This document shows, in pieces, positions 1-42,065 of a stretch of 64,000 nucleotides of DNA. Below the pieces are notes generated by a model, which did no database searches, was not told where the DNA came from, and saw only the letters and a program-made list of their open reading frames with translations. The stretch's first letter is position 1. Each line of letters begins with the position of its first letter. Origin of the DNA: Amphiscolops sp. MND2022 (lineage: Eukaryota); assembly GCA_964187785.1 (NCBI GenBank), contig OZ076409.1:70558001-70622000 (forward strand), read 5' to 3'. Made by a program: the position numbers and the translations under genes.

Positions 1-10
1 GCCGTCGGTT

Positions 11-3000
11 TTGTGCACACTTTTTTTCAGTGGTGACAAATATGGATGCAATGGCCGATACTTTTTTACTTTGTTCCCAAAATCTTTTACAGACTCTTGG
101 GCAAAGGTGTCTTGTCGTTTTGGATATTGTAATCTGGAAACTTTACCTTTGTTTGAAGATTATACTTTAATCAAAAAACAATTCGATCAATTAGTAATGT
201 CACACAGAGGCCATGATTTGAAACATAACTTAAATAATTTTAGTTTCCCCTTCATTAAATGTCCAGTTGGATGTAATACCCTCATTAATGAAACTGGCAA
301 AATTTCTTTCGTGCACTTATTAAATTACCTTTTCCCCAATTTCAAATCTTTTGGAGCAAACAAAAATTACCTGCGAAGCATGCGAGAAGACTGGTTGAAT
401 TCTACGTTACATTTGGATACATTCTTAAGTTCACCATGTTTATCCGTCGACGAAAATGGTTTAGCTCTGGTTACTTGTTACATGCACAACAAAAAGATTG
501 ACAAACAAATTGTTCACATGGCTCCTTCTTGTTTCGGAAATTTATTTCACGTACAGGTGGATCGTTTAGCTCCAATGGCAACAAAAGTCAGAGGTTACTT
601 ACCAGCAAAAGTTGGAGAATTTAGTCATGGATTTACAATTTCAACAAGTTTGGGCGGTCAGTTCGGCATAAGTTGTTTACAGCTGACAAATAAACGATGT
701 TTCAATGTGAAAAGTGACTACTTATTACCAACTTTAGAACCCGTTATTTATGCCAATCGACAAGATGTTCGTAATGTAGTTAATTTACTTTACAATGACC
801 ATTCGTTGAATATGGATTTTATCGAATACTTGAAAAGTAGTACCTGCACTCTTGGTAGAGAGGTGTTAGAATCATTCAATGAATCCAGTAACTCGCTTTC
901 CATGTTCGCAATGCTCTGCGTAAAGAAGTATTTGGAAGAAAATAATGATCTCAAAAAGCCAATACCATCTTCATTGCTAAATTGTCATAACATGAACAAA
1001 ACAGGTCTCCAACCTTTTCTTGCAGCTCGGAAGCACTTTAATAGAAGAGTTTCTTTATTTCTTTTGATTTCTTGGTTCATTAATTATGAATATTTTGGAT
1101 TCATTTGCTTAGTCGACAGTAGAATCTCCAGTTTGCTAATTCAACAATTGAACGGTCTTCACCGGACAAAAAGTTACTGCAATTCATCAACTCTGAACTC
1201 TTTGGAAACAAGTTTCCGTGAATCGTTCAATTTGGAAGATAGTAGTTCGATCCATTTAGATTTCATGACTCGAATACTTGACACGATAGACGGTTGTAAA
1301 GTTATTTATTGCCCTGAACGAAAAATCATCAATATGTTAGAGTTTCACAGTTTTGTTGATAATTCTGAATCAGTTAACGTTGTCTGTATCATCAACCAAG
1401 AAGATAAGTCTTTGAGAAACTTTGGAATTCCTGAAATTATTCAAATTTACAACAAGCAGTTTCAATTAGTTTATTTATTTGCGACAATTAATGATCCTAT
1501 CCTGATGAGGTACGGTAATGAATTCTTTGAATGGTGGTGTTTCGATTCAAAAAATAACCTTGTGTTAGATGCAACTACCATGTGTAACTGCAAATGTAAT
1601 TTCGAAAGGAGTTGGAAAATTTTACTTTATTTGGGTGATTACACAGACATAAAACCCTCTGTGATGTCGAGTATCTTTGGGAGTGGGCAAGATAAAATCA
1701 AATGTGGGTATCATGAAAAACTCTTATCTACTGATCTTAGTGATTCAACCTATAAATGCTCCATTACCAATTGTCAACGGAAGTCCGCGTACAGATGTCC
1801 TGAAACGAATTGTTTTACTAGTGTCTGTAACAGGCATTTGAAAAGTTTAGAAGACAACAAATTGCATTTTTTGAAATGTTCCGAAAATTTTGAAAATAAT
1901 GATAGCTACGAAACTTTGGATATGCATCGAGTTATTGAAGATGACGAAAATCAACTTGGAATTGATTATGTATTAGAAGGCATACAAGAAACCGGTTTTG
2001 ATAATCAGTACAGTGTTCAAACGGAAACAACGTCTTATTTACCTGAAGTTGAATTATGTCGAAACGCTGAAACAATTCCTATTCATCTATTTTTCAATGA
2101 TGGTCTCCAAGTTTTTCGACGGTTGAAAAAAGAGCCGAAAATAGCAAAGCTACTTCAAAGGTTTTTACAGAACTTTGCTGCATCTCAACCTGATCACACA
2201 GTTTCCCTTATTCAACCAAGTGCCCTTTTATGTCCTTCATTGTTTCTTATTCAAAATAAAGATGGCTCTTTTGGTGGTGCCATTCCATATTTTCTGTACG
2301 GGGATAATACAGCCAATGCAAAATTGGGTTTTGCAAGTTTTAATGAACATGTGTACAGCAGAATAACAAACATTGACATCGGTGCAAGTGGCAACGTCAA
2401 ATACCTGTATTTCCTTATTGATGCTTTATTGAATTTACATCTTCACAATTCCGTTACCAAAAACTACTTCCAGAGGGGCATTCAAAATATAGAAATTAAA
2501 GGAGAAAAACTAAGCAGTTATTGCACAAAATCAAACTCCTTTTCTGTCACAGATTCAGAACGCAATGTTAAGGAACTGGCTCAAGCAATGGCACAAAAAT
2601 GCCCAACAGTTTTTTTGACACTCACCCTGAATTTGAAGAAGCACCCTGGAACGGCTGCTTTGGTGAAAGCCATAGATTGCCTATTTCCCGATAAAAATTC
2701 AGAGGAACACAGAGCTGCTATGCAAACTTTTATGCCAGTAATGATGAGGATTTGGAATTTTACAGTTCAAATTTTTCTGGATTATTTGATAAACTCTTCA
2801 GAAAAAATTATTGGAGATATAGAAAATTATTGGGGAAGAGTTGAATTTCAGAACAATAGTGGCAATCCGCCCCATTACCACATACTCCTTTGGTTGAGGG
2901 ATACGTTAGAGAGCATTCAAAATAAAATAGCTTCAACTAAAAAACATCTACAGTCTGCGTTTCAGGATATTTTCCATTCTAATTTACGTTTGATAGACAG

Positions 3001-6000
3001 TGAAGACGAATTAGATGAAGTTTTCAATTTATGTGTGAGAATTCACACACACGACTGTTCGAAAGCTGCCAACAGATGCAAAATAAAAAGAGATGCTAAT
3101 GGTACTCCAATTTGTCGTTTCCCACCGTATGAACAGTCCAATGTTTTCTGGTTGAAAGACATCACTGTACCATACAAAAAAGAGACTTTATTATTGTTGG
3201 AAAAACTGAAACTAGCTACACCAATTGATGATTTCAATTACGAATTGGATGAACATTTAACAACAAACAAATTTTCTTATCCTGCTGATAAAGGAGCACA
3301 TTTGATGCCTACTTGTCCTGCTGTCTTTGCAATAACACAATCCAGCACAAATGTTCTTCTAATTACCAAAATCTTCAGTTCGCGCTACCTCAATAAATAT
3401 GCGGCAGGAAAAGAAGAACACGTGATTACAAATTTAAAACCAGGCAAGGAATCTAATACTTGGAGTGTAGAGGAAGGAACCATTGAAAATACAAAGATTA
3501 CAGCAGTTAACATGCGAAAAGAACAAATGGACAACAAAAAGAGACAAAAGGTAGAATTAAAAGCTGTAACAATTTCACAAACAGAACAAATTTGGTGGTC
3601 TCTAAAACTTCCTTGTATAATGTCGTCTTTTGATTTCATACATGTTCCTTCTGTGCCGATGGAAAAACGTCAGGGAATAATTCAAACGTATAAATATCAT
3701 GCAAACTTTGTCGACAAATGTATCCACCTCAGAGAAAATGAACAACTTGAACCTCATAGACTTTTCAAAGACAATCAAAAAACAATTATGCAGGATGCAT
3801 TCACGTCCTCTTACTCTCTGGACAAAGTAACAATTTTTTCTCTTCGCCCTCCTGAGCTGCTTTGCGTCACGACTATGAAAGCCTATTTCACATTGTTTGT
3901 GCGAGAAGAAAAGATTAAAAAATTGAGTCAAATGAAGATACTTCTGCATAAACAACCTCCTGTCTGGATAGATGGAACGAATTGTGTTGTTCGCATACGT
4001 CAATCGGCAATGAATCAAATTTCACAATACATAAAGGATATGGAGACGCTCAATAATGAAATTGCCTTCTCAAATTTGAAACACATATTAACAATTAATG
4101 ACGGCAATAATATCACAGATCACGTGTCCAAAAATAGACTTACATCTAACACACCTGTTGTCGTCTTCTCTACAGTCTATCCGAGACAGCCGATTAATTT
4201 TTTATTACACTTGTTGTACTCCATGGGAGCGTTTGAGACAGAATTAGATTTGTTTCATAGTTCTTCGTTACTGGACTGTTTTGTCAAAGCCAAAATTTTA
4301 CCAGAGGGAAAGTTGACAGAAGAAGATGCACATGTTTTGATAAGAAAGTATTTATTTGAGCAAATGATCTTCATTCCCGGAGGTAATTTATCTTTTTCTG
4401 CTAGATTGTCAGACGCGTTTCATCATATTATGGCATTGGTCAAAAATGAATTTATTCATCAACCCCCAGCTGTTCTAATGGCTCATTTGACTGAAAACAT
4501 GGAAGAAGCTGTTCAAATTACCATAAAAGAATCTCAAGAGCGATTATTCAACAGATTGACGCCTCTTAATCTTCAAAATAAACCACCCGTGCTTCCAGAT
4601 TTGGTTACAGAAACTTGGAAACCTGAAATCAACCATTTGTCTATTCAATCTGTAGAATCTTTTAACGAACAATCGAATGTAATCAATTACATAATAAATG
4701 CCCTGAATGCAAAGATTGTTGCACATGATGAAATGTGTCAAAAACACTATGTTATTCTTGGTAAACCTGGAGCTGGAAAAAGCCATGTCACGTCAGTTGT
4801 TACTTTGTATGCAATGCTCAATGGTTTAACTTGTTACGTTACTAGTCTGGCTTCAAAAAGAGCATCTAATTTCAACTGTGAACATATTCACCGCTTATTT
4901 TGTTTATTGGCAAATAAGAAAATCAAACCTCAGGACAAAGCAAATTCAGCTGTTACTCGTATCATTAAAGATTCAAAAAAACACGCTCTTTTGTTATCTT
5001 TGGACATTTTAGTTCTCGAAGAGATTGGATTAATAAATGCAGAGTTATTATATGTTATTGACCTAATTTTTCAAACTCTTCACGATAACGATAAACCTTT
5101 TGGTGGTGTAACAATTATTTGCAATGGTGATACAAACCAGCTTCCTGCAGTTACAGGTACAGACACCTTTCTAAGTCCCGCATTACTGTTCAACTTTAAT
5201 TGCTTTTTCTTGGAACACCCAGTTCGAATGATGGACTTAGAGGGTCAGTTGGTTTTGGATCTAATGTCAAGAAAACCGGTTCCAAAAGATTCGATTGACC
5301 TGATTATAAGCATCATTGGAAGAAGATGTTCTTTTGTTTCATGTTGGGATGACATCCAAGATTGTCATATAATGAAGGTTTTTGGAAAAAAGAAAGCGGA
5401 AAGAGAAGCTATAGAATACCACAAAAAGAAGATTTTGTCGTCAGGAAAATTGGCAATTTCCATTGAAGCTGAAGATGAGATGTGCGTCACTAAGAGTAGT
5501 TCTTGGATACCAGCCGCAGAAGAAGTAAAAAATTTTCTGGATAATGAGGTGAGAGAACCAAGGTCGTTGTTACTTCACGAACATTGTTTGCTGAGAATAA
5601 CTAGAAATTTGGAAAAATTATCTCAAGGCCAAGTTTGTATACTTGCAGCTGTACCGCAACAAAATGACCGTTCAATTCTAGTTTTTGTTCCTCTTGATTC
5701 AAGTTGCTTATCTGACGATAATTTGTGGAGCGAAAAGACATTTTTACATTGGCCAACTAAAAGACTTTACAAAACACTTGGATTTGTTATTTCATACAAA
5801 AACTGGACAATTCGGAGAAAACAATATCCAGTATTAAACAATGCAGCCATGACGTGTCACAAATTAATGGGTGATACATTTCTGAACATAGCCAGCAAAT
5901 TATCTGTTAGCGATGATGCTTACTCTCTATGGATGGCTTCTCAACTTTATGTCATTGTTAGCCGAGTGAAAAATTTGTCAAATGTGATTTTCGTTGGTTC

Positions 6001-6003
6001 AAA
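11..6003 (+). CDS. RepHel transposase, large exon: Cys-rich N-terminal region, HUH (Y2) Rep domain, Pif1-family SF1B helicase. The frame is open from the window edge, so the true start is probably upstream.
   Basis: Rep motif 1 PTVFLTLTLN (~2603-2632), motif 2 WGRVEFQNNSGNPPHYHILLW (2831-2893), HTHDC...C...CRFPP, motif 3 YLNKY (3386-3400). Helicase: Walker A GKPGAGKS (4760-4783), ILVLEEIG, PFGGVTIICNGDTNQLPAV, RKQYPV..AAMTCHKLMGDT, QLYVIVSRVK. Confidence 0.93.
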
Positions 6004-6070
6004 GTAAGTTCATTTTGATTCATGTATATACATACCTTTTCAAAGTTTTTGATAAAAAATTGATTCACAG
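6004..6070 (+). other. Predicted 67-nt spliceosomal intron (phase 2)
   Basis: Donor AA|GTAAGT at 6004, acceptor TTCACAG|G at 6070. Removal deletes the TAA at 6005-6007 and gives ...VGSK-EDTLSSMRQ in frame with ORF 5994..6602. Confidence 0.85.
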
Positions 6071-6602
6071 GGAAGACACACTCAGCTCAATGCGACAGAT
6101 TTTGGGGAAAACTACATCTCACGAAATTGCAGTTGAGAAAAGATTTCAATTGTTGAAAGCTGCCAATCAAAACAACACCTGCGCGATTTCACTTCCAGAA
6201 TTGCTTATGAGTCCAATAACTTGTAATATCCCCATGGTAGAAAACGGTTTTGTGTATGTCTTGTTGAGCAAAAAACAATATCCTGAAGTTGTGAAATATG
6301 TGGGACAGACTGACAGCAGTTTGTTATCAGCATTAAGAAGGCATAATACCGGTCAAGAAGATTGCATTACACAGTCAACTTACTTAAGGCCATGGTGTCT
6401 GGTTGCCTTTGTATACAATTTCGCTTCTGACAGTGAAAGATTGACTATAGAGACACATGTTGAAGACAAAACAGCCAATGCTCAAAGCTTACAAAGCATT
6501 TTGGATGAATTGGAGAAATGTTTGCAACACTTTAGTGAATCTAATTTGAGATTCTGTAAATGTGCAAGAGTGATAAATAATAATAATAATAATATGGAAT
6601 GA
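6071..6602 (+). CDS. Terminal exon of RepHel: GIY-YIG (SLX1-like) endonuclease domain
   Basis: GFVYVLLS...KYVGQT...LRRHNTG...T..RPWCLVAFVYNF...ERLTIE follows the SLX1-type GIY-YIG pattern (VYxL, YVGxT, HN, RPW, F, E). Confidence 0.8.
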
Positions 6603-6926
6603 ATTGTGTTAACATTTAATTTCGCTATAATATTGTGTTGTATGTAATCATATAATTAATAATAAACTCAATAATTTTCAGAAGCAATAGTTTTCAACAT
6701 AGAGTAAATGAAACGTTTCTACAATGCAACGAGCTTTCACGGATTTCAAGGAGTGAAAGCGAGTTGATACACTCACCTTTTTATTCTTCATATTTTTTTA
6801 TGTTTGAAGAAAATTTTGATAAAAAGATTCGATGTGAATTGAATTAAGGTTAAACCCTGACTAAACAATGTAATTGCACGCTGATGAATTACAGGTTATT
6901 TGGACATAGAAGTATTTAGTAAAATT

Positions 6927-7200
6927 CATGCAAGTGTATATATTAAAGTAGAGCATTTGATCACAGAACACTTAAAAATGGTGGAAAAGTTTTATAGAAA
7001 AAAATTTGGGAAATTAACACTTGAAATAATAGACAAACATTGTAGATACAAAGGAAAGTGCGATTATTTTCAGTCAACACTTTACCAAAAAAGAATTATT
7101 TTCTTCAAACATAACAAAAATGGATGTAAATTGAAACTGAGCGAGATTACTAGCAATGACAGATTCTATGTTTAAGGCATAGATGAAACGGATAACGTCG
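6927..7200 (+). pseudogene. Decayed, truncated copy of the N-terminus of the 8187..9497 ORF
   Basis: HASVYIKVEHLITE...CRYKGKCDYFQSTLYQKRIIFFKHNKNGCKLKLSEITSNDRFYV* aligns with PASGYIKVEKSITE...RRYKIKCVYLHSTLGQKRINFFKPNRTGAKLKQNEVTGYDRFIVL. Confidence 0.85.
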
Positions 7201-7259
7201 TTAATGTTTTCTCCGGATATGGGATTTATTATAAAAGGATTCTCCTCTAACATAAAATT

Positions 7260-7436
7260 TGGTTGTATGTACAATTGATGTACTATTTCGAATCAATAGA
7301 TGAAAGAGACAAAATGCATGCAAATCTGACTAATTTTGAACAAAAATTTTAAATACTAAATGAAATTTAAGATACCTTGAAAAAGTGTTTAGATTATTTT
7401 CATTGATCAAAAGTGCGATTTTGTGAATGTGCTCGC
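7260..7436 (+). pseudogene. Highly diverged remnant of the C-terminal half of the GIY-YIG exon
   Basis: Hand translation WLYVQLMYYFESIDER...I*DTLKKCLDYFH*SKVRFCECAR is colinear over 59 codons with WCLVAFVYNFASDSER...ILDELEKCLQHFSESNLRFCKCAR. It has 3 in-frame stops. Confidence 0.75.
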
Positions 7437-7489
7437 GAAAATGATAATAAATAACAAGGTATTAAGTTGATTAAATACTCAAAACAAAT

Positions 7490-7873
7490 GGTTGCGTAGA
7501 AAACGGATTTGTGTAATTTTTGTTGAGAAAAAAACAATATACTGAGGTTGGAAGATTTGTGTGACAGACTGTCTGCATTCTCTTGTCGGCCTCAAGAAGT
7601 CATAATACCGGTCAAGAAAGTTGCATCACAGAGTCAATTCATTTGAGACTATGGTGTCTGGTTGCTTTGGTATACAATTTCGGTCCTGAGATTGAAAGAA
7701 CGACTATCGAAACACATGTAAAAGACAAAACAGCTAATTTTCATAACATGCAAAGCGTTCAAGATGAATTTGAGAAATCTTTGCAAAATTTAAGTGTCAG
7801 TAACTACAGATTTTGTGAATGTGCACGGGTGATTAACCATAATGTTTTGGAATTATTTGAACAAAACTTTTAA
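7490..7873 (+). pseudogene. Decayed duplicate of the GIY-YIG exon
   Basis: DNA and protein similarity to ~6237-6602 (HNTGQESCITES...WCLVALVYNF...RFCECARVIN). Stops fall at the GIY (GTGTAA) and YVG (GTGTGA) positions. Confidence 0.88.
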
Positions 7874-8186: not shown

Positions 8187-9497
8187 ATGCCTGCTAGTGG
8201 ATACATAAAAGTGGAGAAATCAATAACGGAAGTACAAGAAGTGGTTGAGACAAAGTTCACTCGAATCACATTTGGAGACTTGATTGACGAAGAAGTAACA
8301 AAACCTCGAAGATATAAAATAAAATGCGTGTATCTTCATTCAACCCTCGGGCAGAAGCGAATTAATTTTTTTAAACCCAACAGAACAGGAGCAAAATTGA
8401 AACAGAACGAGGTAACAGGGTATGACAGGTTCATAGTGTTGGGAGTAGAAGGCACGGATAATGTAATACTTGCATTCACCAAAACAGGCGATGAGTCTAA
8501 AAGGATACTGCTATATCATAAAATTGGGTTGCAGCCAGGATCTCCAGTATGGTTGCTATGTCCAAAAGTGGAAGGGTTTCTGAAACAAACCCAAAACCCA
8601 TTAATTTCAACTGGTGACCCTTTAGTTTTGACATATCGGTCTCTCGTATACAAAAGCCCACCGCAAGAAGTTGGACTTGCAAATTTTGTCTACTTTGATT
8701 TTAAAGCAACCAATTTCAACATGAGACAAGCTGTACCGAAAAACAAGGTGTGCACAGGAACATTGTGTGATGCGCAGGTGGATGGCTCATGTCCTTGCAT
8801 AGCTGCGAAACCAAGAGAACATTGGGCAATTACATTCATTTTTTGTTGCGATGAGCTTTCTGAACGAATAACAGGTGAAGAATTTATAAGTTTCACATCG
8901 ATGGAATTAACAAAATTGTTTGTTCATGTGAATAAACGAAAAGAGCCTTTATCATCTGACGAAATTGACGTTTTCGATATGGAGGAGGCAGTTTGTGATA
9001 TGGCCTCTGTTATTGATTCAGCTCAAGGATTCAGAGTCTGTGGTTGGTTCAAACCAGCATCAGATGAGGATGGTGTAACAGCAGGAAATTTCTGTTACCA
9101 CGTCAGTGCCGTATCGCCATGTTCTGCATTAAATCCTTATCAGAAGACATTAATGTATGGAGCTCCGTCAACTGATCAATTTTCCTGCTCTGTCTCCGAT
9201 GATGGTAACTCTGTGGTCGCTCAAGATTATCGTTTGGATTCACAGAATCAACATGAATATTCCAATAACATGTATGAAATGGATTCGCAAAAGATGACTC
9301 AAGAAAACATTGACCTGTATGGTAATGATGAAGGCATAGCAAATCATGAAACAATGAACCGAAATGACCAAGATGGGGACTCAATCAATGGTATAACGCA
9401 ACCAGCAGCTCAACCTAGTCAAAGTGTTCAAGAATCTGAAAGGGAAGACGATTTGGATGATGATCTACCAAAGTTAACATATGGGCCAGATATTTAA
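8187..9497 (+). CDS. 436-aa accessory protein of unknown function (possible OB-fold/Zn-ribbon ssDNA-binding protein with an acidic disordered tail)
   Basis: Intact ATG-initiated ORF inside the element, with a decayed paralog at 6927. Cys cluster CTGTLCDAQVDGSCPC and D/E/N/Q-rich C-terminus. The fold assignment is inference only. Confidence 0.75.
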   Translation: MPASGYIKVEKSITEVQEVVETKFTRITFGDLIDEEVTKPRRYKIKCVYLHSTLGQKRINFFKPNRTGAKLKQNEVTGYDRFIVLGVEGTDNVILAFTKTGDESKRILLYHKIGLQPGSPVWLLCPKVEGFLKQTQNPLISTGDPLVLTYRSLVYKSPPQEVGLANFVYFDFKATNFNMRQAVPKNKVCTGTLCDAQVDGSCPCIAAKPREHWAITFIFCCDELSERITGEEFISFTSMELTKLFVHVNKRKEPLSSDEIDVFDMEEAVCDMASVIDSAQGFRVCGWFKPASDEDGVTAGNFCYHVSAVSPCSALNPYQKTLMYGAPSTDQFSCSVSDDGNSVVAQDYRLDSQNQHEYSNNMYEMDSQKMTQENIDLYGNDEGIANHETMNRNDQDGDSINGITQPAAQPSQSVQESEREDDLDDDLPKLTYGPDI

Positions 9498-10593: not shown

Positions 10594-10671
10594 AGGCATG
10601 CCGAGGTATGCCTTTCGACGATCATATAACAACCATGCCCCTGCAAGGTCACTTTTTGCGGTAGCAGCTAG
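10594..10671 (+). other. 3' terminus of the RepHel element: hairpin plus CTAG
   Basis: 9-bp stem with one G-T pair at 10594-10613, CTAG at 10668-10671. Nearly the same sequence as the family C end (24566-24642). Confidence 0.85.
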
Positions 10672-11960
10672 GTGCCCGGATTTCTATTCGATAAAGTATG
10701 TGGCGCGCCTTGGGTAGGGTCCCTTGCGCGCTCTTGGGTATGGTGTTCACCAGCTAGGAAACAGGGGTCGATTTTTCGGGATCTCCTAAACTAGCCACAC
10801 GATTTGGCTGAAATTTGGCACACGTACTCCCCTCGGCACGGTGAAGATGATTTCCTACTGACGTTTTTCCCGCAAAATTTTTTTTGTTGTCCAAAATAAC
10901 GGTTTTTGGGGTAAAATTTTGAATTTTTTTTAAATTTTATCTTATATCTCGCCACGGGTTTACGCTAGCGCTTCAAAACCCTGCTAAAGAAAGCTTGCAA
11001 ACTGTCTCAGGAATGCGGTGTAAAATTTTCAGCTCAATCGGACTCAAACTCGGGGAGATATAGCGTTTTTCCGGAGCGGGGGGGTTTCATTTTTCTAACG
11101 GTCCAGCTTATCTTAGCCATTTTTTCGAAAATGTACTCGCCTAAAGGCCTCCCCTGGCCGGTTTTATTCCCAGCAAAACCATTTGGCCCTAAATACGGAG
11201 TTTCAGCGTTCCAGCATTCCCGGGCGAAAAGTTGTGGGACTTAGAAAAGTTCAAAAATTTTCAAAAAATTTTTTTTCCGTTTTCCGCCCTCCCCCCCGAG
11301 GGGAAAAGACCCCCCAACCAGTAATTTGAGTGAATTCATGTGGAAAGGCCATGTTTAGAGGAGAAAAATCCCGTTTAAATCGTCTTTTTATCTTTATTCA
11401 ACGTTGACTTATGACGTTTTGAAGGTGATGTTTGGAGGTGTGAAGCACGTGAAAAGTAAACGTTATGAGTATTTATCTGATCTGAAAGCCATTGAGATGC
11501 AACCTGTTTTGCTCAAAACGTAATTCAATTCAGTTTGGTAGTCAATCAACACCCTTTGTTGTCATTTGACATCTTTTTTTGTTGATATAAGAAAAAATTT
11601 CGTGTATTTATTCATTTTTTTCTCATCAAATAACTTGAAACAGTTGAGTACATTCCATCCCCCCTTCACGGGGGAGATGAGAATGTACTCGCAAAAAGCC
11701 CCGAACTACGGCCCTTACCTTCCTGAGCTACGCAGTATAAAGATTGCATATTGGTTCCGACATTTTGATAGAGTTATATCTTGGTAATCTGTCTGGGTAT
11801 GCAGAAAAACCAGCACGTGCTTTTTTATACCAAGTTGCTCACAACGACATTTATTTTATATCAACGCCCCCATATTTATCAACGCCCCCCGTCCGTGGGC
11901 ATGCCGAGGCATGCCCTTCGACGACGTATACCAAGATATACATCGAGCGCGTTAGCCTAG
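10672..11960 (+). mobile_element. Family B unit (1289 bp)
   Basis: Starts GTGCCCGGATTTCTATTC, ends hairpin...GTTAGCCTAG. Near-identical copies at 29879 and 31168. Confidence 0.85.
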
Positions 11961-14900
11961 GTGCGGGGGGGAAACCCCAACAAATATATTGGAGGATTCG
12001 GGTAGGGTCCTGAATCCGATTTTAACTCTAATAGCTATCGATAGGAAATCGTGCAAAAATTTCGGGATCTCGTGATCTAACCATAGGATTTTAAAGTTGG
12101 AGCGGCCCCCACCAGATTTTCCAAAGTTATTCGCCCCCCACCGGGTTCCAGCGTGATTGAAATATTTTGACGGGGTACACGGGCGACCGTTAGGGGTCAT
12201 TTTGGGGGTAAAATTTATATCCGGTCGCATAACTTTTTTCCTGTTGGTTTAAAACTTTGGGACCCTGCTAAAAGTTTCTTGACCGTGTTGCAGTGGCTCC
12301 GGAGGTCCAAACCAAATTTTTCTATCTTGAAGCTATCTCCAAGTACCCCCCCGCCCAAACCGTTATTTTTCCGGAAACGCAGGTTTTTGACCCGGAAGGA
12401 GTCGTCTGAGCGCGGGTTCGTTAGGTGATGTATTGGGGACGGCCTTGAGACGAAGCGGGGGACATGTAGTTTGCCGACCCCAATTTACCCCCCGGACGGG
12501 AAATGACCGTTATATGAGCGGGAAAATTGCCCCCCTCCACGTTTAACCGCTATTTCCGGTGTGAAGGAGTGGGAGTAGCGCGTCGGGTGTCATATATCAA
12601 AAGTAGGTTTAGACAAGGACCTATCGGAAACATGTGGTTTGGGACCCCCTGGACCAACCCGTTAGCGGGAAATGGCGCTTCCGCCTCCTTTTTTTACTGC
12701 TAAAACCGTAAAATGGGCATTGAGGGGTAAATATCTCGTGAACGCGTGGAGCAATCGTGTCCTTCACTACTACAAGGTTTCATGCCCATCATATGGTGCC
12801 TTCAGGGGGGCAAACAGATTTCCGCTATCTATCACCGTTACCGACTTGGCCCCCCAGCCTAACCGCTATGTTACCGGAAATGTCACTTTTTGAGCCCAAA
12901 GGGTCAGTCCGAGCGCGGCATCGTTAGGTAACTTATTGTAGTACTCAATGAGACGAGTTGGGGGATATAGTTTCAGTCACCCCCCGTTACCCCTTGTGAC
13001 CGGAAATGACCGTTATGTTGGTAAAATTGCGATTTTTGTACTTTTTGAAGGGCAATTAGGTGCGGAAGGAGTGGTAATAGGTGCTTGGACACTATATGAG
13101 GTAAGGGAGGACGTGAGGCGAGCATTCGGAAATAACCGTTATGTTGACCCCAAAGTCCCCCTGGTACCGTAAACGACCGGAAATGGTCAAATTTTGTGTC
13201 TATTGAGTACAAATGTTTGGTGTTTTATGAATAAAAGTACCTATTAGGTGTTTCGACGGTCTGCAGTAGTGAACATAGTCATGAAACCTTACGGGGGGTA
13301 ACGGTATATAGCACCGGAAGTCCAAACCGCTGGAGACAGGATAGGTTTTTTGGTTTTAAAATGTCTTTCGGCGTACTTTTGTTGACTATTATGGACTATT
13401 TTTAAAAATTAAAGTTTTTCCATATAGTTTCAGAGACTCCGAAACCTCAACCAACATAACCGTTACCTTATGATAGCCTTTCAAGTTGGCCTGGTGTCAA
13501 CTTGGAGGGGCTATCCTTCAAAAATCGTTAATCAAGTGTGTTTTTGGGTATGTTTGTATCAATTTAGAATCAATTAGAGCTTCAAGAAAAGTTTGCCAAC
13601 GACAAAAACTATGTCGTGATGATTCCGTTATTAGAATGATGGTTAACAAAATGTTGATAAAGTTAATTTTTTACATTTCAAATGTGTCCTAAAAGCCAGA
13701 AAACCTCTTTACCAAAAAAATGGTATTGATTGAATTGTATATAACAGGTAATAAAAGTTCAAATTGATTATTACGTTTCATTATTCAAGCTAAAACTTCA
13801 TAACAAAGTTTTATTAACGTCAACGCCACACACTTTACATCAACGCCCACCGTCTGTGGGCATGCTGAGGCATGCCCTTCGACGACGTATACCAAATACA
13901 TACCTAACGACGCCCGTACATCCCGGGCTAGGTGCGGGGGGGTAACCCCAACAAAGATATTGGAGGATTCGGGTAGGGTCCTGAATCCGATCTTAGTACC
14001 GCCAGCTATCAGTAGAAAATTTCCCTCAAAAACCGGGATCTCGGGAACTAACCGTAGGATTTGAAAGTTGGAGCGGCCCCCACCAGATTTTCCCGAATAG
14101 ATCGCCCCCCACCGGGCTCCATACCCCGGAAAATTTTTTTTTGGCCACACGGGCGACAGTTAGGGGGTCATTTTAGGGGTAAAATTCATATTGGTCCATA
14201 TAACTTTTTTCCTGTTGGTTTAAAAGTTTGGGAACCCTGCTAAAGGTTTTTCGACCATGTTGCAAGGGCTCCGGAGGTGCAAACCAAATTTTTCTATCTT
14301 GAAGCTATCTCCAAGTACCCCCCCGCTCAAACCGTTATTTTTCCGGAAACGCAGGTTTTTGACCCGGAAGGAGTCGTCTGAGCGCGGGGTCGTTAGGTGA
14401 TGTTTTGGGGACGGCCTTGAGACAAAGTGGGGGACAAGTAGTTTGCCAACCTCAATTTACCCCCCGGACGGGAAATGACCGTTATATGAGCGTGAAAAAT
14501 GCCCCCCTCCACGTTTTACCGCTATTTCCGGTGTGAAGGTGTGGGAGTAGCGCGTCGGGTGCCATATATCAAAAGTAGGTTTAAACAAGGAACTATCGGA
14601 AACATGTGGTTTGGGACCCCCTGGACCAACCCGTTAGCGGGAAATGGGGCTTCCGCCTCGTTTTTTTACGGTTAAAAACGGAAAACGGGCATTGAGGGAT
14701 AAATATCTCGTGAACGCGTGGAGCTACGGTGTCCTTCACTACTACAAGGTTTCATACCCATGATATGGTGCCTTCAGGGGGGCAAACAGATTTCCGCTAT
14801 CTATCACCGTTACGGACTTGGCCCCCCAGCCTAACCGCTATGTGACCGGAAATGTCACTTTTTGAGCCCAAAGGGTCGGTCCCAGCCAGGGAACGTTAGA

Positions 14901-17900
14901 TAACTTTTTGTAGTACTCATTGAGACGAGTTGGGGGACATAGTTTCAGTCACCCCCCGTTACCCCTTGTGACCGGAAATGACCGTTATGTGGGTAAAATT
15001 GGGATTTTTGTACTTTTTGAAGGGCAATTAGGTGCGGAAGGAGTGGTAATAGGTGCTTGGACACTATATGATGGAATGGAGGACGTGAGGCGAACATTCA
15101 GACATAACCGTTATGTTGACCCTAAAGTCCCCCTGGTACCGTAAACGACCGGAAATGGTCAAATTTTGTGTCTATTGGGTACAAATGTTTGGTATTTTGT
15201 AAAAAAAAAGTATCTATTAGGTGTTTCGACGGTCTGCAGTAGTGAACATAGTTATGAAACCTTGTGGGGGGTAACGGTATATAGCACCGGAAGTCCAAAA
15301 CGTTAGAGACGGGATAGTTGTTTCCGTTTTAAAATGTCTTTCGGCGTACTTTTGTCAACTAATATGGAATATTTTTTAAAATTAAAGTTTTTCCATATAG
15401 TTTCAGAGACTCCCAAACCTCAAACAACATAACCGTTACCTTATGATAGCCTTTCAAGTTGGCCTGGTGTCAACTTGGAAGGGCTATCCTTCAAAAATCG
15501 TTGATCAAGTGTGTTTTTGGGTATGTTTGAATCATTTTAGAATCAATTAGAGCTTCAAGAAATGTTTGTCAACGACAAAAACTATGTCGTGATGATTCCG
15601 TTATTAGAGTAATAGTTAACAAAATATTGATTAAGTTGATTTTTTACATTTCAAAAGTGTCCTAAAAGCCAGAAAACCTCTTTACCAAACAAATGGTATT
15701 GATTGGATTGTATATAACAGGTAATAAAAGTTCAAATTGATTATTACGTTTTATTATGTAAGCTGAAACGTCATATTATAGTTTAATTAACGTCAACGCC
15801 ACATACTTTACACCAACGCCCACCGTCTGTGGGCATGCCGAGGCATGCCCTTCGACGACGTATACCAAATACATTTCATATCTACACCCTAACCGCGGTA
15901 GCAGCTAGGTGCGGGGGGGTAACCCCAACAAAGATATTGGAGGATTCGGGTAGGGTCCTGAATCCGATCTTAGTACCGTCAGCTATCAGTAGAAAATTTC
16001 CCTCAAAAACCGGGATCTCGGGAACTAACCGTAGGATTTGAAAGTTGGAGCGGCCCCCACCAGATTTTCCCGAATAGATCGCCCCCCACCGGGCTCCATA
16101 CCCCGGAAAATTTTTTTTTGGCCACACGGGCGACAGTTAGGGGGTCATTTTAGGGGTAAAATTCATATTGGTCCATATAACTTTTTTCCTGTTGGTTTAA
16201 AAGTTTGGGAACCCTTCTAAAGGTTTTTCGACCATGTTGCAAGGGCTCCGGAGGTGCAAACCAAATTTTTCTATCTTGAAGCTATCTCCAAGTACCCCCC
16301 CGCTCAAACCGTTATTTTTCCGGAAACGCAGGTTTTTGACCCGGAAGGAGTCGTCTGAGCGCGGGGTCGTTAGGTGATGTTTTGGGGACGGCCTTGAGAC
16401 AAAGTGGGGGACAAGTAGTTTGCCAACCTCAATTTACCCCCCGGACGGGAAATGACCGTTATATGAGCGTGAAAAATGCCCCCCTCCACGTTTTACCGCT
16501 ATTTCCGGTGTGAAGGTGTGGGAGTAGCGCGTCGGGTGCCATATATCAAAAGTAGTTTTAGACAAGGATCTATCAAAAACATGTGGTTTGGGACCCCCTG
16601 ACCCAACCCGTTAGCGGGAAATGGGGCTTCCGCCTCCTTTTTTTTCGGTTAAAAACGGAAAATGGGCATTGAGGGGTAAATATCTCGTGAACGCGTGGAG
16701 CTACGGTGTCCTTCACTACTACAAGGTTTCATACCCATGATATGGTGCCTTCAGGGGGGCAAACAGATTTCCGCTATCTATCACCGTTACGGACTTGGCC
16801 CCCCAGCCTAACCGCTATGTGACCGGAAATGTCACTTTTTGAGCCCAAAGGGTCGGTCCCAGCCAGGGAACGTTAGATAACTTTTTGTAGTACTCATTGA
16901 GACGAGTTGGGGGACATAGTTTCAGTCACCCCCCGTTACCCCTTGTGACCGGAAATGACCGTTATGTGGGTAAAATTGGGATTTTTGTACTTTTTGAAGG
17001 GCAATTAGGTGCGGAAGGAGTGATAATAGGTGCTTGGACACTATATGATGGAATGGAGGACGTGAGGCGAACATTCAGACATAACCGTTATGTTGACCCT
17101 AAAGTCCCCCTGGTACCGTAAACGACCGGAAATGGTCAAATTTTGTGTCTATTGGGTACAAATGTTTGGTATTTTGTAAATAAAAGTATCTATTAGGTGT
17201 TTCGACGGTCTGCAGTAGTGAACATAGTCATGAAACCTTGTGGGGGGTAACGGTATATAGCACCGGAAGTCCAAAACGTTAGAGACGGGATAGGTTTTTC
17301 CGTTTTAAAATGTCTTTCGGCGTACTTTTGTCAACTAATATGGAATATTTTTTAAAATTAAAGTTTTTCCATATAGTTTCAGAGACTCCCAAACCTCAAA
17401 CAACATAACCGTTACCTTATGATAGCCTTTCAAGTTGGCCTGGTGTCAACTTGGAAGGGCTATCCTTCAAAAATCGTTGATCAAGTGTGTTTTTGGGTAT
17501 GTTTGAATCATTTTAGAATCAATTAGAGCTTCAAGAAATGTTTGCCAACGACAAAAACTATGTCGTGATGATTCCGTTATTAGAGTAATAGTTAACAAAA
17601 TATTGATTTAGTTGATTTTTTACATTTCAAAAGTGTCCTAAAAGCCAGAAAACCTCTTTACCAAACAAATGGTATTGATTGGATTGTATATAACAGGTAA
17701 TAAAAGTTCAAATTGATTATTACGTTTTATTATGTAAGCTGAAACGTCATATTATAGTTTAATTAACGTCAACGCCACATACTTTACACCAACGCCCACC
17801 GTCTGTGGGCATGCCGAGGCATGCCCTTCGACGACGTATACCAAATACATTTCATATCTACACCCACCCGCGGTAGCAGCTAGGTGCGGGGGGGAAACCC

Positions 17901-20900
17901 CAACAAAATTTTTGGAGGATTCGGGTAGGGTCCTGAATCCGAGTTCAGTGCTGCCAGCTTTCGTTAAGAAAATTTGGATAGGATTCGGGATCTCGTGATC
18001 TAACCATAGGATTTTAAAGTTGGAGCGGCCCCCACCAGATTTTCCGAAAATTAGCGCCCCCCACCGGGTTCCATACCCCGGAAAATTTTTTTCTGGCCAC
18101 ACGGGCGACCGTTAGGGGGTCATTTTAGGGGTAAAATTCATATTGGGCCACATAACTTTTTTTCTGTTGATTTAAAAGTTTGGGAACCCTACTAAAGGTT
18201 TTTTGACCGTGTTGCAGGGGCCCCGGATGTCCAAACCAAATTTTTCTATCTTGAAGCTATCTCCAAGTACCCCCCCGCCCAAAACGTTATTTTTCCGGAA
18301 ACGCAGGTTTTTGACCCGGAAGGAGTCGTCGGAGCGCGGGGTCGTTAGGTGATGTATTGGGGACGGCCTTGAGACGAAGTGGGGGACATGCAGTTTGCCA
18401 ACCCCAGTTTACCCCCCGGACGGGAAGTGACCGTTATATGAGCGGGAAAAATGCCCCCCTCCACGTTTTACCGCTATTTCCGGTGTGAAGGAGTGGGAGT
18501 AGCGCGTCGGGTGCCATATATCAAAAGTAGGTTTAAACAAGGACCTATCGGAAACATGTGGTTTGGGACCCCCTGGACCAACCCGTTAGCGGGAAATGGG
18601 GCTTCCGCCTCCTTTTTTTACGGTTAAAAACGGAAAATGGGCATTGAGGGGTAAATATCTCGTGAACGCGTGGAGCTACGGTGTCCTTCACTACTACAAG
18701 GTTTCATACCCATGATATGGTGCCTTCAGGGGGGCAAACAGATTTCCGCTATCTATCACCGTTACGGACTTGGCCCCCCAGCCTAACCGTTAAGTGACCG
18801 GAAATGTCACTTTTTGAGCCCAAAGGGTCGGTCCCAGCCGGGGAACGTTAGGTAACTTATTGTAGTACTCATTGAGACGAGTTGGGGGATATAGTTTCAG
18901 TCACCCCCCGTTACCCCTCGAGACCGGAAATGACCGTTATGTGGGTAAAAGTGCCATTTTTGTACTTTTTGAAGGGCATTTAGATGCGGAAGGAGTGGTA
19001 ATAGGTGCTTGGACACTATATGAGGTAAGGGAGGACGTGAGGCGAGCAGTCAGACATAACCGTTATGTTGACCCTAAAGTCCCCCTGGTACCGTAAACGA
19101 CCGGAAATGGTCAAATTTTGTGTCTATTGGGTACAAATGTTTGGTATTTTGTAAATAAAAGTATCTATTAGGTGTTTCGACGGTTTGCAGTAGTGAACAT
19201 AGTCATGAAACCTTGTGGGGGGTAACGGTATATAGCACGGGAAATCCGAACCGTTGGAGACAGGATAGGTTTTTTGGTTTTAAAATGTCTTTCGGCGTAC
19301 TTTTGTCGACTATTATGGACTATTTTTAGAAATTAAAGTTTTTCCATATAGTTTCAGAGACTCCGAAACCTCAACCAACATAACCGTTACCTTATGATAG
19401 CCTTTCAAGTTGGCCTGGTGTCAACTTGGAAGGGCTATCCTTCAAAAATCGTTAATCAAGTGTGTTTTTGGGTATGTTTTTATCATTTTAGAATCAATTA
19501 GAGCTCCAAGAAAAGTTTGCCAACGACAAAAACTATGTCGTGATGATTCCGTTATTAGAATGATGGTTAACAAAATGTTGATAAAGTTGTTTTTTTTCTA
19601 TTTCAAATGTGTCCTAAAAGCCAGAAAACCTCTTTACCAAAAAATGGTATTGATTGAATTGTATATAACAGGTAATAAAAGTTCAAATTGATTATTACGT
19701 TTCATTATTCAAGCTAAAACTTCATAACATAGTTTAATTAACGTCAACGCCACACACTTTACATCAACGCCCACCGTCTGTGGGCATGCCGAGGCATGCC
19801 CTTCGACGACGTATACCAAATACATACCCAAACGACGCCCGTACATCCCGGGCTAGGTGCGGGGGGGTAACCCCAACAAAATTTTTGGAGGATTCGGGTA
19901 GGGTCCTGAATCCGAGTTCAGTGCTGCCAGCTTTCGTTAAGAAAATTTGGATAGGATTCGGGATCTCGTGATCTAACCATAGGATTTTAAAGTTGGAGCG
20001 GCCCCCACCAGATTTTCCGAAAATTAGCGCCCCCCACCGGGTTCCAGCGTGATTGAAATATTTTGACGGGGTACACGGGCGACCGTTAGGGGTCATTTTG
20101 GGGGTAAAATTTATATCCGGTCGCATAACTTTTTTCCTGTTGATTTAAAAGTTTGGGAACCCTACTAAAGGTTTTTTGACCGTGTTGCAAGGGCTCCGGA
20201 GGTCCAAACCAAATTTTTCTAGCTTGAAGCTATCTCCAAGTACCCCCCCGCCCAAAACGTTATTTTTCCGGAAACGCAGGTTTTTGACCCGGAAGGAGTC
20301 GTCTGAGCGCGGGGTCGTTAGGTGATGTTTTGGGGACGGCCTTGAGACGAAGTGGGGGACATGTAGTTTGTCAACCTCAGTTTACCCCCCAGACAGGAAA
20401 TGACCGTTATATGAGCGGGAAAATTGCCCCCCTCCACGTTTTACCGCTATTTCCGGTGTGAAGGAGTGGGAGTAGCGCGTCGGGTGCCATATATCAAAAG
20501 TAGGTTCAGACAAGGACCTATCGGAAACATGTGGTTTGCGACCCCCTGGCCCAACCCGTTAGCAGGAAATGGGGCTTCCGCCTCCTTTTTTTACGGTTAA
20601 AAACGGAAAATGGGCATTGAGGGGTAAATATCTCGTGAACGCGTGGAGCTACGGTGTCCATCACTACTACAAGGTTTCATACCCATGATATGGTGCCTTC
20701 AGGGGGGCAAACAGATTTCCGCTATCTATCGCCGTTACCGACTTGGCCCCCCAGGCTAACCGTTAAGTGACCGGAAATGTCACTTTTTGAGCCCAAAGGG
20801 TCGGTCCCAGCCGGGCAACGTTAGGTAACTTATTGTAGTACTCAATGAGACGAGTTGGGGGATATAGTTTCAGTCAACCCCCGTTACCCCTTGGGACCGG

Positions 20901-21851
20901 AAATGACCGTTATGTGAGTAGAATTGCAATTTTTATACTCTTTGAAGTGTATTTAGGTGCGGAAGGAGTGGTAATAGGTGCTTGGACACTATATGATGTA
21001 ATGGAGGTCGTGAGGAGAGCATTCGGAAATAACCGTTATGTTGACCCCAAAGTCCCCCTGGTACCGTTAACGACCGGAAATGGCCAAATTTTGTGTCTAT
21101 TGGGTACAAATGTTTGGTATTTTATGGATAAAAGTACCTGGAAGGTGTTTTAAAGGCCTCCAGAAGTGAACATAGTCATGAAACCTTGTGGGGGGTAACG
21201 GTATATAGCACCGGAAGTCCAAACCGTTGGTCACAGAATAGGTTTTTTGGTTTCAAAATGTCTTTAGGCATAGTTTTGTGGGTTGAATCGTCATAATATC
21301 AACTAATACGGACTTTTTTCGGAAATAAAATTTTTTCACATTAGTTTCAGGGACCTCCAATGCTTCAGTCAACATAACCGTTACATTTTGATAGCCTTTC
21401 AAGTTGACCTGGTGTCAACTTGGAAGGGCTATCCTTCTAAAATCGTTAATCAAGAGTGTTTTTGGGTAGGTATATGTTGCATTAGTACCATTTAGAGCTT
21501 CATCAACAGTTTGCCAACGGCAAAAACGATGTCGTGATAATTCCGTTATAAAAATATTAGTTAACAAATTGTTTTCAAAGTTGATTTTTTCCATTAAAAA
21601 TGTGTCCTAATGCCACCAAATTGAATAAAATAATAAATGGTATTGACTAAAACTAAATAACAATGAAAAAGAAGATCAACATTTTTATTAGGTCTCATTA
21701 TGGAAGCTGAAACCTCACGTTTTAGTTTAATTAACGTCAACGCCACATACTTTACATCAACGCCCACCGTCTGTGGGCATGCCGAGGCATGCCCTTCGAC
21801 GACGTATACCAAACAACCTCCATATCTACACCCACCCGCGGTAGCAGCTAG
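11961..21851 (+). mobile_element. Five tandem family A units (1971-1995 bp)
   Basis: Starts at 11961, 13932, 15909, 17884, 19857, each GTGCGGGGGG(G/T)AA... Each ends hairpin...GCTAG. Confidence 0.9.
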
Positions 21852-24642
21852 GTGGCGGGGGGCTGTCCCCAATAGAATATAGTGAGGTAGGGTAGGGTTC
21901 CCTACCGAACATTCAGTACTGAAAGACTCTTGTAGTATGAAAATTTTTCGATGTTTTGAGACCGATTTCGGATTCCACCCGTCAGAAGTTTATGATTTTT
22001 TGGCCCCCACCCAGATTTTGGGCACTGATCGCCCCCCACCAGGTTCCATACCCGTGGTTTCGTTGTGACGGGTACACGAGCGACCGTTAGGGGTCAATCA
22101 GGGGGTAAAATTTATAAAAGTGTGAATAACTTTTCCCCCCGTCGTTTTAGCAGGTCCGGTCACTAGTAAAGGTTTGTTGGGCATCATGCAGTGGGTACGG
22201 GGGGCCAAACAAAAATTTTCTATCTTGCACCGTTACGGACTTGCCCCCCCGCCCAAACCGCTATTTTACCGGAAATTGCACTTTTTGACCGGGAAGGAGT
22301 CGTCTGAGCGCGGAGTCATTTGGTAATGTTTTGTAGAGCATCTGGAGACGTGGTGGGGGACATGTAGTTTGCCGACCCCAGTTTACCCCTCGGACGGGAA
22401 ATGACCGTTATGTGAGTTTCAAAAATGCCCCCCTCCAATTTTCCCCGCAATTTCCGGTGTGAAGGAGTCGGAATAGCGTGTCGAGTGCTATATATCAAAA
22501 GTAGCTTTAAACAAGGACCTATCAGAAACATGTGGTTTGGGACCCTTTGAACGGACCCGTTAGCCGGAAATAGGGTGACCGCCTCCTTTTTTTGGTGGTA
22601 AAACCGTAAAACGGGCATTAAAGTGTAATTATCTCGTGAACGCGTGGAGCAATCGTGTCCATCACTCCTACAAGGTTTCATACCCATGACATGGTGCCTT
22701 CAGGGGGGCAAACAGATCAGCGCTATCTATCACCGTTACGGACTTTGCCCCCCAGCCTAACCGCTATATTACCGGAAATTGCCCTTTTTGACCGGGAAGG
22801 AGTCGTCTGAGAGTGGAGTCGTTAAGTAATGTTTTGTAGAGCATCTAGAGACGTGTTGGGGGACATGTAGTTTGCCGACCCCGGTTTACCCCTCGGACGG
22901 GAAATTACCGTTATGTGAGTTTTAAAATTGACCCCCTTCAACTTTCCCCGTTATTTCCGATGTGAAGGAGCGAGGGTAGCGCGTCGGGTGTCATATATCA
23001 AAAGTAGGTTAAGACAAGGACCAACCGGGAACATGTTGTTTGGGAACCTCTGGCCCAACCCGTTAGCCGTTATAAGGGTGATCGCCTCCTTTTTTTACTG
23101 CTAAAACCGGACAACGGGCATTGAGGGGTAAATATCTCGTGAACGCGTGGAGCAATCGTGTCCATCACTACTACAAGGTTTCATACCCATGATACGGTGT
23201 CTTCAGGGGGGAAAACAGATTACCGCTATATATCACCGTTACGGACTTGGCCCCCCAGCCTAACCGCTATGTGACCGGAAATGTCATTTTTTGAGCCAAA
23301 AGGGTTGGTCCCAGCGTGGGAACGTCAGGTAACTTTATGTAGAACTCAATGAGACGAGTTGGGGGATATAGTTTTAGTCACCCCCCGTTGACCCGTTGGA
23401 CCGGAAACGACCGTTATGTAGTGAAAAATGTTGTTTTTATACTTTTTGAAGGCCATTTAGGGCAGGAAGTATCGGTAATATGTCTTTGGACAGTATACAA
23501 TGAAAGTTTTGGTGTGAAACGAGCAATCTGAAATAACCGTTATTATGATTCGGAAGTCACACTAACAGCGAAAATGACCGTTATGTAGTGAAAATTTTTT
23601 TCACAATTTTTTTTATTTTCGATAGGTCCTTCAAGCCAGGAAGTAGCTGTATTAGGTCTTTGGTCACTTTATGATGATTGTGGTGTTGTGAGATGACCGT
23701 ACGAACTTGACCGTTATAATGCCCCTGAAGTTGCGGCGGCACGAGAAATTTCAGAAAGTTTGTCTTTTCTGTGTTTTGTTGGAATAAAAATGTAATTTCA
23801 TCAAACCAAAGTGCATTCAGGGTGTCAGAAAGCTTCAAGAAAAGAATTTGACAGGAAACATGAGGTGAGAAATAGGAAAATGCCACGGAAATCCAACCCG
23901 TTGGGAAGTAAAGATAATAAATTGGTTTGGAAGTGCCAATCGACGTGTAATTGCGGATCATAGCTACGATATTGTCTCTTTTGTTTCTTTTTGAAGACTT
24001 TGAACATTTTCACTTTATCAGCTTGAAGTTTCGACTCCATTAACTCAATAACCGTTACAATATGATAGCCCTCAAGTTGACCTTGTGTCAACTTGAAAGG
24101 GCTATCCTTTCACAACTGCGCAGCGACAGTGTGATTGAGTGTTTTTGTTATTATCCATAGCCAATTTGAACTTCAACAAAAGTTTAACCATAGTTAAAAA
24201 ATTTCATATGATTCTTTTAAAAGGATAAGTAAGAAACAAATGTTTGACAAAAAACTTTCAACCTTTAATTTGTGGACTGAATATCAGGAAAACCATGTCT
24301 CCTAACGTTGTTGGATGAAATTCAACATGATTCTTTTAATAGGATAACAAAGTTTGACAACATATTTTTTTATATTCTTTCGTTGGTGCTCTACATTTTA
24401 GGAAAACGAATTTTCCAACAAATATTGTTGGCTGATGCCTGTTCATAGTGGCTTGAAAATTTCACCAACTGTAATGCTTTTTATCAAAGGTGAAACCGCT
24501 CCTTACCGTCGCATAATGTAATTCAAGCCGACGCCCACATGCCAACATCAACGCCCACCGTCCGTAGGCATGCCGAGGCATGCCTTTCGACGACGTATGC
24601 CAAATCACGCCCCTGCGAGGTCACTAAAGCGGTAGCGGCTAG
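21852..24642 (+). mobile_element. Family C unit (2791 bp), diverged relative of A with an extra 503-bp internal repeat
   Basis: A-like internal sequence. ACCGTTACGGACTT recurs at 22229, 22732 and 23235. The 3' end resembles the RepHel element end. Confidence 0.82.
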
Positions 24643-41900: not shown

Positions 41901-42065
41901 ATTCCGTGCAAAGCTTTTTTTCACACCATGTGACTCAACTATAACATGTATGTAATGAAACCAATAACACCTTCAACTATCAACGCCCACCGTCCGTAGG
42001 CATGCCGAGGCATGCCTTTCGACGACGCGCGCCGGAAACAATCTAACGGCGCCACCCGCTTCTGG
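35916..42065 (+). mobile_element. Two near-identical family I units (3078 and 3072 bp; CTGG ends; joint at 38993/38994)
   Basis: Direct repeat with very few differences (e.g. a 7-nt ATTTCAG duplication near 36978-36991 in copy 1 only). A-T variant of the 3' hairpin. Confidence 0.88.

Follow-up and report, generated by a model that had tools for sequence, protein, structure and literature searches.

It is not settled how Helitron-like elements complete their integration, nor what the second nuclease of Helentrons is for. In Helentrons (HLE2), this second nuclease is an apurinic (AP) endonuclease at the C-terminus of the Rep–helicase (RepHel) transposase (Thomas et al. 2014, PMC4067079; Li et al. 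2024, PMC11417382). Within the literature searched (Repbase and most subscription journals lying outside this scope), the only relevant statement of a GIY-YIG domain accompanying a RepHel concerns HelenSM92, a Sphagnum HLE2 family described as typical (TT sites, terminal inverted repeats) and as having ‘captured’ the domain (PMC11417382), and no statement of a RepHel with SLX1 was found. Here we analyse a stretch of 64,000 nucleotides (nt) of Amphiscolops sp. MND2022 (assembly GCA_964187785.1, contig OZ076409.1, positions 70,558,001 to 70,622,000; hereafter the window, whose features located below all lie on the + strand). It holds what is probably an autonomous member of a distinct Helitron-like rolling-circle clade. 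The transposase joins a Rep, a Pif1 helicase and, C-terminally, a GIY-YIG domain of SLX1 type; an OB-fold protein is encoded by a gene of its own, and the ends read GTG...hairpin-CTRG. In this copy, the GIY-YIG domain would be non-catalytic. Like HelenSM92, the element associates a GIY-YIG domain with a RepHel.

The window opens inside ORF1, an open reading frame (ORF) of 2001 codons (2..6007; 2001 amino acids (aa), 5' end open), and a second open frame spans 5988..6602. Within ORF1, an HUH Rep region (2576..3400; Pfam Helitron_like_N at residues 859-963, E 1.6e-8) lies upstream of a Pif1-like helicase (4664..6003; Pfam PIF1, E 4.2e-9, with Pif1 matches in the PDB), both matches being above the Pfam cut-off; the helicase displays the Walker A motif GKPGAGKS and ends in FVGSK. 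With an HUH Rep upstream of a Pif1-like helicase in one ORF, the element is Helitron-like in the broad sense. The two frames can be joined by a phase-2 GT-AG intron of 67 nt (6004..6070), which starts GTAAGT, finishes TTCACAG and interrupts a Lys codon as AA|G. Exon 1 of the RepHel-GIY-YIG transposase is then 2..6003, its 5' end lying beyond the window, and exon 2 (6071..6602) runs in another frame for 176 codons to a stop.

Taken alone, an in-frame GT..AG pair is weak evidence, because eight AG sites are listed within 140 nt of the donor. What lifts this splice above chance is the combination of a gapless junction with intronless proteins, same-site introns in three metagenome loci (L001, L003 and L004) and the GIY-YIG match of the exon. 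Indeed, in BLAST alignments the last residue of ORF1 and the first of exon 2 fall on adjacent residues of the intronless proteins P0014 (2309|2310; 33% identity), P0015 (2518|2519; 27%) and P0033 (515|516). P0013 is aligned from exon residue 2 (junction 2306|2308, 26% identity), P0016 also runs past the site and matches the domain profile weakly (E 4.5e-4), and the spacing at the junction is alike in several intronless relatives (e.g. FVGSK|NDTL, FVGSK|SDTL). Among the nine metagenome loci sampled (L001-L009), L001, L003 and L004 display GT..AG introns of 80, 87 and 85 nt, respectively, at the same codon position, followed by exons 37-38% identical to exon 2 of the window; L005-L008 read through the site, L002 stops short of it and L009 is a true Helentron. 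Judged by this homology, the splice is almost certainly real, as the first-pass annotation of the window had proposed in joining the two frames across 6004-6070 with a gain of 176 codons. A separate GIY-YIG gene, initiated within the exon at a Met in position 7 or 8 and preceded by an in-frame GT..AG pair arisen by chance, would agree with the listing by gene callers of a 169-aa protein (P0043), but the homology to intronless proteins begins at exon residue 1, before this Met and without a gap, and three other elements share the intron position; we find this alternative hardly credible.

Exon 2 comprises two linker helices (residues 2-33) followed by a GIY-YIG domain of SLX1 type (residues 55-169, approximately). 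Against the Pfam GIY-YIG family the exon scores 22.1 bits (E 1.8e-4), slightly below the cut-off of 22.6, and a sequence search of the exon against the PDB returned no match. Its AlphaFold model (pLDDT, the predicted local distance difference test, 88; 69 sequences) retrieves only Slx1 or HIGLE in the first 11 Foldseek rows (best Slx1, E 8e-6). By fold comparison (VIA), At-HIGLE (Z 12.3, root-mean-square deviation (rmsd) 2.5, 107 residues aligned) and Slx1 (Z 12.2, rmsd 2.4, 106 aligned) lead, a third row for Slx1 or At-HIGLE follows at Z 11.3, and the next row falls to 6.6. In its predicted structure, exon 2 has the extended GIY-YIG fold of Slx1 and At-HIGLE, and the SLX1-type identity suggested at first pass is upheld. 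The domain accordingly resembles the SLX1 lineage (PMC6902002, PMC9071465, PMC5344696) in fold and active-site layout, but differs in being fused to a transposase, in lacking the C-terminal RING domain of SLX1 (the protein stops no more than about 7 residues past the matched fold) and in having lost, in the window copy, the catalytic Arg to Ala.

A GIY-YIG domain behind the helicase had at first pass been called unusual, and its fusion to the RepHel ascribed to the intron; neither part of this view holds. Searching with the exon gave 104 representatives at 50% clustering; in 62 of them a single ORF holds both the domain and the helicase tail, and in eight the Rep as well; many of the others are short proteins starting past the junction. 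The expected fused homologs thus exist, and the fusion is the normal layout of the family. A search with ORF1 residues 850-2001 returned 16 proteins, one being a copy of the window element; seven of the 15 non-self proteins stop exactly at FVG-x-K, three run on for 7-19 residues, one ends earlier and four continue. Because of the intron, gene callers truncate the protein right behind the helicase, and the helicase-GIY-YIG layout is under-counted.

The helicase tree (35 rows; quick IQ-TREE with support from the Shimodaira–Hasegawa-like approximate likelihood-ratio test (SH-aLRT) only; root from the midpoint and one long-branched Helentron, L009; L008 gave no usable row) orders these events. The 14 rows whose ORF ends at the site or shortly past it all group in a single clade (SH-aLRT 98), which is embedded in 20 read-through rows; this clade is sister to five intronless rows (together 100), with P0015 and L007 next. 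The intron itself was seen in DNA for four of the 14 rows, and deduced from protein ends for ten. By this nesting, a single gain brought the intron into a gene that was fused beforehand. By sequence comparison, the fusion is family-wide and ancestral, the intron having been gained in one branch exactly at the helicase/linker boundary, and the fused layout is common to a large, scarcely described rolling-circle transposon family. Capture of a host SLX1 exon by way of an intron was rejected, as the fusion predates the intron. With the patterns used, no relatives were detected among viral contigs and prokaryote genomes. A word-indexed search for longer exon-bearing proteins gave none among 513 candidates, a failure of sensitivity since other searches found many, and P0058 was discarded as a chance match that fails the domain profile.

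The splicing-controlled switch of the P-element transposase offers another way to look at this intron, with retention yielding a nuclease-less RepHel and splicing (e.g. in the germline) the full enzyme. Such a role would suit an intron placed exactly at the domain boundary, persisting in a 14-row clade and giving, when retained, a complete helicase with an immediate stop. However, this stop follows from the donor consensus, as a by-product of a GTAA/GTGA donor in phase 2 (likewise in L001 and L004), and the unspliced frame of L003, P0005, P0006, P0010 and P0040 extends over several variable residues. Moreover, the sister clade has no intron, and the domain to be switched is probably already non-catalytic. 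The nuclease-less isoform envisaged in the first-pass annotation is left without support, and a regulatory switch seems very unlikely.

The window domain retains Y62, Y76, G78, H91, N92 and E127, and has an Ala codon (6330..6332; exon residue 87, within SALRRHN) where the catalytic Arg would stand, four residues ahead of the conserved His. The Arg mutated in SLX1 R41A likewise stands four residues before the His (from a primer in PMC5344696, translated by hand), and R41A combined with E82A is the nuclease-defective SLX1 of that study; in At-HIGLE, Arg55 is among the catalytically essential residues (PMC9071465). The doubt over catalysis that the SALRRHN stretch had raised was thus well founded, and the window domain is, by its sequence, probably nuclease-dead or nearly so.

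The same loss recurs in the family. The catalytic Arg is kept in 74 of 114 aligned rows. Of 113 non-independent rows (10 seeds plus 103 hit domains), 69 retain Arg, His and Glu, 34 are without Arg, eight are incomplete and two are without another residue. In a domain tree (FastTree, catalytic columns removed; 104 of the 114 rows, short rows and the window's own copies being left out), the window falls in a 26-row clade (support 99) from which Arg is absent in 23 rows, a separate six-row clade (100) is without Arg and Glu, and four further losses are scattered. Given this distribution over separate clades and scattered rows, catalysis would have been lost more than once. As a side observation, the exons of L001 (L001:6340-6855), L003 (L003:3978-4493) and L004 (L004:7978-8493) have Glu at the catalytic Arg position and Arg or Lys at the metal-binding Glu position, i.e. 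a charge swap, and P0045 is similar.

The Arg loss does not seem to have freed the domain from selection. For L003 and L004, both without the Arg, the Glu and the second Tyr, non-synonymous divergence (dN) of the exon is 0.065 and synonymous divergence (dS) 0.41, hence a dN/dS of 0.16 (0.09 for the helicase). The exon length is constant (171-179 aa across seven DNA loci, window included), and the chance for a neutral 176-codon exon to stay stop-free is 0.08, 0.013 and 0.006 at 0.1, 0.2 and 0.27 substitutions per site, respectively. An internal duplication of about 1.26 kb in the window (6237-7265 versus 7496-8531, 68% identity by self-BLAST) also decayed reciprocally: the first copy retained the exon and lost the following gene, of which a decayed 5' fragment subsists (6921..7265, 55% identity to residues 3-118 of the OB-fold protein ORF3), whereas the second lost the exon and retained the gene. 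Decayed exon copies lie at 7260..7873: the one at 7496-7843 (66%) is interrupted by two stops and has Ala in place of the Arg, and the fragment 7260-7448 (37%) represents a third, more decayed copy. Since the decayed copy also has Ala, the Arg loss predates the duplication. These comparisons indicate a domain still under constraint despite its Arg loss, and probably kept for a non-catalytic job. A binding role is favoured by Slx1, in which site I mutants no longer cut and bind only mildly less (PMC6902002), and disfavoured by At-HIGLE, in which DNA-binding mutants lost most of their affinity and the residue before the catalytic Arg is needed for both activity and affinity (PMC9071465).

A functionless, decaying relic, spliced or not, and maintained only for the folding of the transposase or the escape of its mRNA from decay, would account for the repeated loss of catalytic residues seen above, and for an exon diverging faster than the helicase (dN 0.70 versus 0.48 between the window and L001/L003/L004). 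Nevertheless, the low dN/dS of an Arg-less pair and the constant exon length argue against it, as does the conservation of the Asn, of a Pro-Trp and of a C-terminal Cys-Gly-like strand across dead members, so that we judge a relic distinctly improbable.

Several points weigh against a disarmed domain retained for another function. Three proteins inside the window's clade (P0051, P0056 and P0075) keep the Arg, which makes the number of losses unsure. The dN/dS estimate rests on one unsaturated pair, dS being saturated in the other five of six exon pairs, and the window has a Ser at the position preceding the catalytic Arg, which weakens the DNA-binding idea. The window domain also keeps six of the seven scored active-site positions, including Glu127 and His91, i.e. 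more than its close relatives, and residual or altered activity is therefore possible. On one alternative view, the spliced domain would still resolve branched integration intermediates as a structure-selective nuclease of full or weak activity, some other basic residue having taken over from the Arg. In favour of this view are these six residues (Tyr62, Tyr76, Gly78, His91, Asn92 and Glu127), an exon ORF that stayed open while its duplicate decayed, and the presence of Arg89 and Arg90 on the same helix. Yet basic residues one and two positions before the His occur in intact members too and are not a new compensation, the same Arg-to-Ala change belongs to the standard nuclease-dead SLX1 mutant, and in the nearest relatives the Glu and the Tyr are gone along with the Arg; an active enzyme in the window is thus unlikely.

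Set against Helentrons, the element offers both likenesses and differences. Like them, it has a Rep-Pif1 transposase with a second nuclease fused behind the helicase, and a separate gene for a protein binding single-stranded DNA (ssDNA); an (F/Y)W-x-R stretch before Rep motif 2 (YWGR in the window, FWYR in Helentron L009) may correspond to the Helentron signature (F/Y)(W/L/Y/K)R, and an OTU domain, another Helentron trait, occurs at the N-termini of the relatives P0014 and P0015. As control we took the locus L009 (L009:1-5730), where the Helentron RepHel is intact and includes both DUF6570 and the AP endonuclease. Where L009 gives Exo_endo_phos, at the place of the AP endonuclease, the window has the SLX1-type GIY-YIG domain; L009 and the window element share short patches only (best 26% over 150 aa). 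The domain listings of P0001, P0013-P0016 and P0020 do not include DUF6570, which may or may not set them apart from L009. The Rep motif also differs. In the window it reads RVEFQ-NNSG-NPPHYH, and the family form EFQ-xxx-GN-x-PHYH (GN-x-PH in all 17 relatives where the pattern was found, of 22 checked) fits neither the Helentron (S) nor the Helitron (L) version of ExQxRG(S/L)PHxH (as given in PMC4067079); the Ser between the Gly and Pro of motif 2 is present in L009 and not in the window. The Rep tyrosine pair Y1129/Y1133 is invariant (alignment A1). Helentrons are described with subterminal inverted repeats and T|T insertion; the window ends, GTG...CTRG in head-to-tail arrays and flanked by other elements rather than T|T, probably differ in this too. 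Filing the element as a Helentron was rejected.

With canonical Helitrons (HLE1, Helraiser), the element shares a 3' hairpin with a CTRR end and an RPA-like accessory gene, and Helitron head-to-tail neighbours and tandem arrays have been reported (PMC2267711, PMC12001565). Unlike HLE1, its 5' end is GTG rather than TC with A|T insertion, all 30 junctions being CTRG|GTG, its array mixes many families over 53 kb, and it has a second nuclease, which HLE1 have not. The family profile matches Helraiser in the helicase only (E 9e-12), bacterial Pif1 being stronger (E 1e-20). By its Rep motif and ends, the element appears to be neither a Helentron nor a canonical Helitron. It can also be set, by description only, beside the third clade named ‘HLE Paramecium’ (PMC13085455), similarly divergent from HLE1 and HLE2, with a long ORF and strand-biased targeted insertion; that clade targets telomeric repeats, and GIY or SLX1 is absent from the main text of its report.

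The 3' end of the autonomous element (10594..10671) consists of a palindromic hairpin (10594-10613) and a terminal CTAG (10668-10671) about 55 nt further, a spacing that is shorter in HLE1. Downstream, a head-to-tail array of gene-less units of 1.0-3.1 kb, belonging to several families and each built as GTG[C/G]..hairpin ... CTRG, occupies 10672..64000, i.e. 53 kb. The heptamer CTRGGTG occurs 34 times in the window for 9.4 expected, 30 times on the + strand, and these 30 plus-strand CTRG|GTG junctions bound 29 complete units, with families in mixed order on one strand; 2-kb units dominate 11961-21851 and 45732-62810. A GGG(T/G)AGGG motif stands 40-59 nt past the GTG in 30 of 30 cases, and beyond 9600 no coding remnants were found in the array.

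The link between array and transposase comes from two relatives. Both sides of the terminal junction of L007, whose protein is about 32% identical to that of the window and whose nuclease motif is intact, match the ends of one array unit (42066..44443; E 4e-6 and 2e-4), with scores of 53 and 49 for a maximum of 34 and 36 in 500 and 300 shuffles, respectively; GTG is therefore the 5' end of the elements. Furthermore, L004, which is autonomous and has the intron, starts with a region that matches the 5' regions of array units (best E 1e-7). The proposed tie between homologs and CTRG|GTG junctions is thereby confirmed, L007 ending in the same junction and L004 starting like array units. From these shared ends, the arrays are most likely non-autonomous derivatives of this RepHel-GIY-YIG family; it counts against the overall reading that the autonomous copy's own 5' end falls outside the window. 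The termini give only modest z-scores on folding (-2.5 to +1.4), no stable hairpin was found on folding the L007-type 3' end, and covariation in the 5' hairpin (3.75 pairs) barely exceeds the cross-family control (2.8). No intact autonomous element is visible in the window alongside the L007-type unit.

Between the exon copies and the 3' end lies ORF3 (8187..9497, 436 aa), the accessory gene of the family, with an acidic tail. It has 10 non-self homologs, one at the same place in L007 (E 7e-28), and no useful Pfam family. Its Foldseek matches are weak (best E 9e-4), the best fold match being MCM10 (Z 9.3, rmsd 3.2, 115 residues aligned). From the agreement of these moderate matches, mainly over residues 4-169, ORF3 looks like an OB-fold ssDNA-binding protein of RPA/MCM10/CST-like type.

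Rolling-circle transposition by HUH Reps (PMC6431247) suggests how these parts could work together. The Rep would nick the joined ends at a CTRG|GTG junction, the helicase would peel off the strand and the OB-fold protein would coat the stripped strand, whose transfer into existing CTRG|GTG junctions would generate head-to-tail arrays of mixed families. Helentrons and SLX1 suggest, by analogy only, that the GIY-YIG domain of most family members may trim or nick the branched or flap DNA left by strand transfer, in the slot of the Helentron AP endonuclease. In the window branch, the non-cutting domain might bind branched DNA or stabilize the helicase end, cutting being supplied by host nucleases or by intact sister families, of which an L007-type unit sits in the same array. 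The resolution of branched integration intermediates, put forward at first pass, hence fits the intact relatives and probably not the catalysis of the window copy, where the Arg is lost.

That a nuclease unrelated to the AP endonuclease occupies the same C-terminal slot indicates a real step in which branched DNA must be processed, and the family supplies natural intact and disarmed versions of this nuclease. Through the GTG...CTRG ends and the junction arrays, large satellite-like blocks can be recognized and annotated as having been produced by these elements; both features also suggest that insertion is directed to a specific sequence. A bolder proposal would see here an undescribed major clade distinct from both HLE1 and HLE2, with two hallmarks, a resolvase of SLX1 type fused to the transposase and insertion into the end-to-end CTRG|GTG junction of the clade itself, and in which many families share self-made landing arrays and nuclease-lost branches borrow activity in trans from the intact families there, the dead domain being kept as a junction- or partner-binding module; we hold this as speculative and rather doubtful.

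The database protein P0001 is a near-identical copy of the window transposase (four differences over 2001 aa by BLAST) and extends 188 residues further at the N-terminus. With P0017, P0020, P0043 and P0147, it belongs to clusters of near-identical element copies (2-4 aa differences over 2001) found on several long contigs, a pattern suggestive of a recent spread or of one species being represented by more than one assembly. In P0125, a Ulp1-type protease domain (residues 2483-2661) lies behind the GIY-YIG domain. Pif1 helicases have DE as Walker B; in the family this motif (window ~5010-5030) is EEIG throughout alignment A1. Finally, the N-terminal part of the transposase (window 2-2500), for which no family match above the cut-off was obtained, displays conserved Cys/His clusters, e.g. 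at residues ~573-625.

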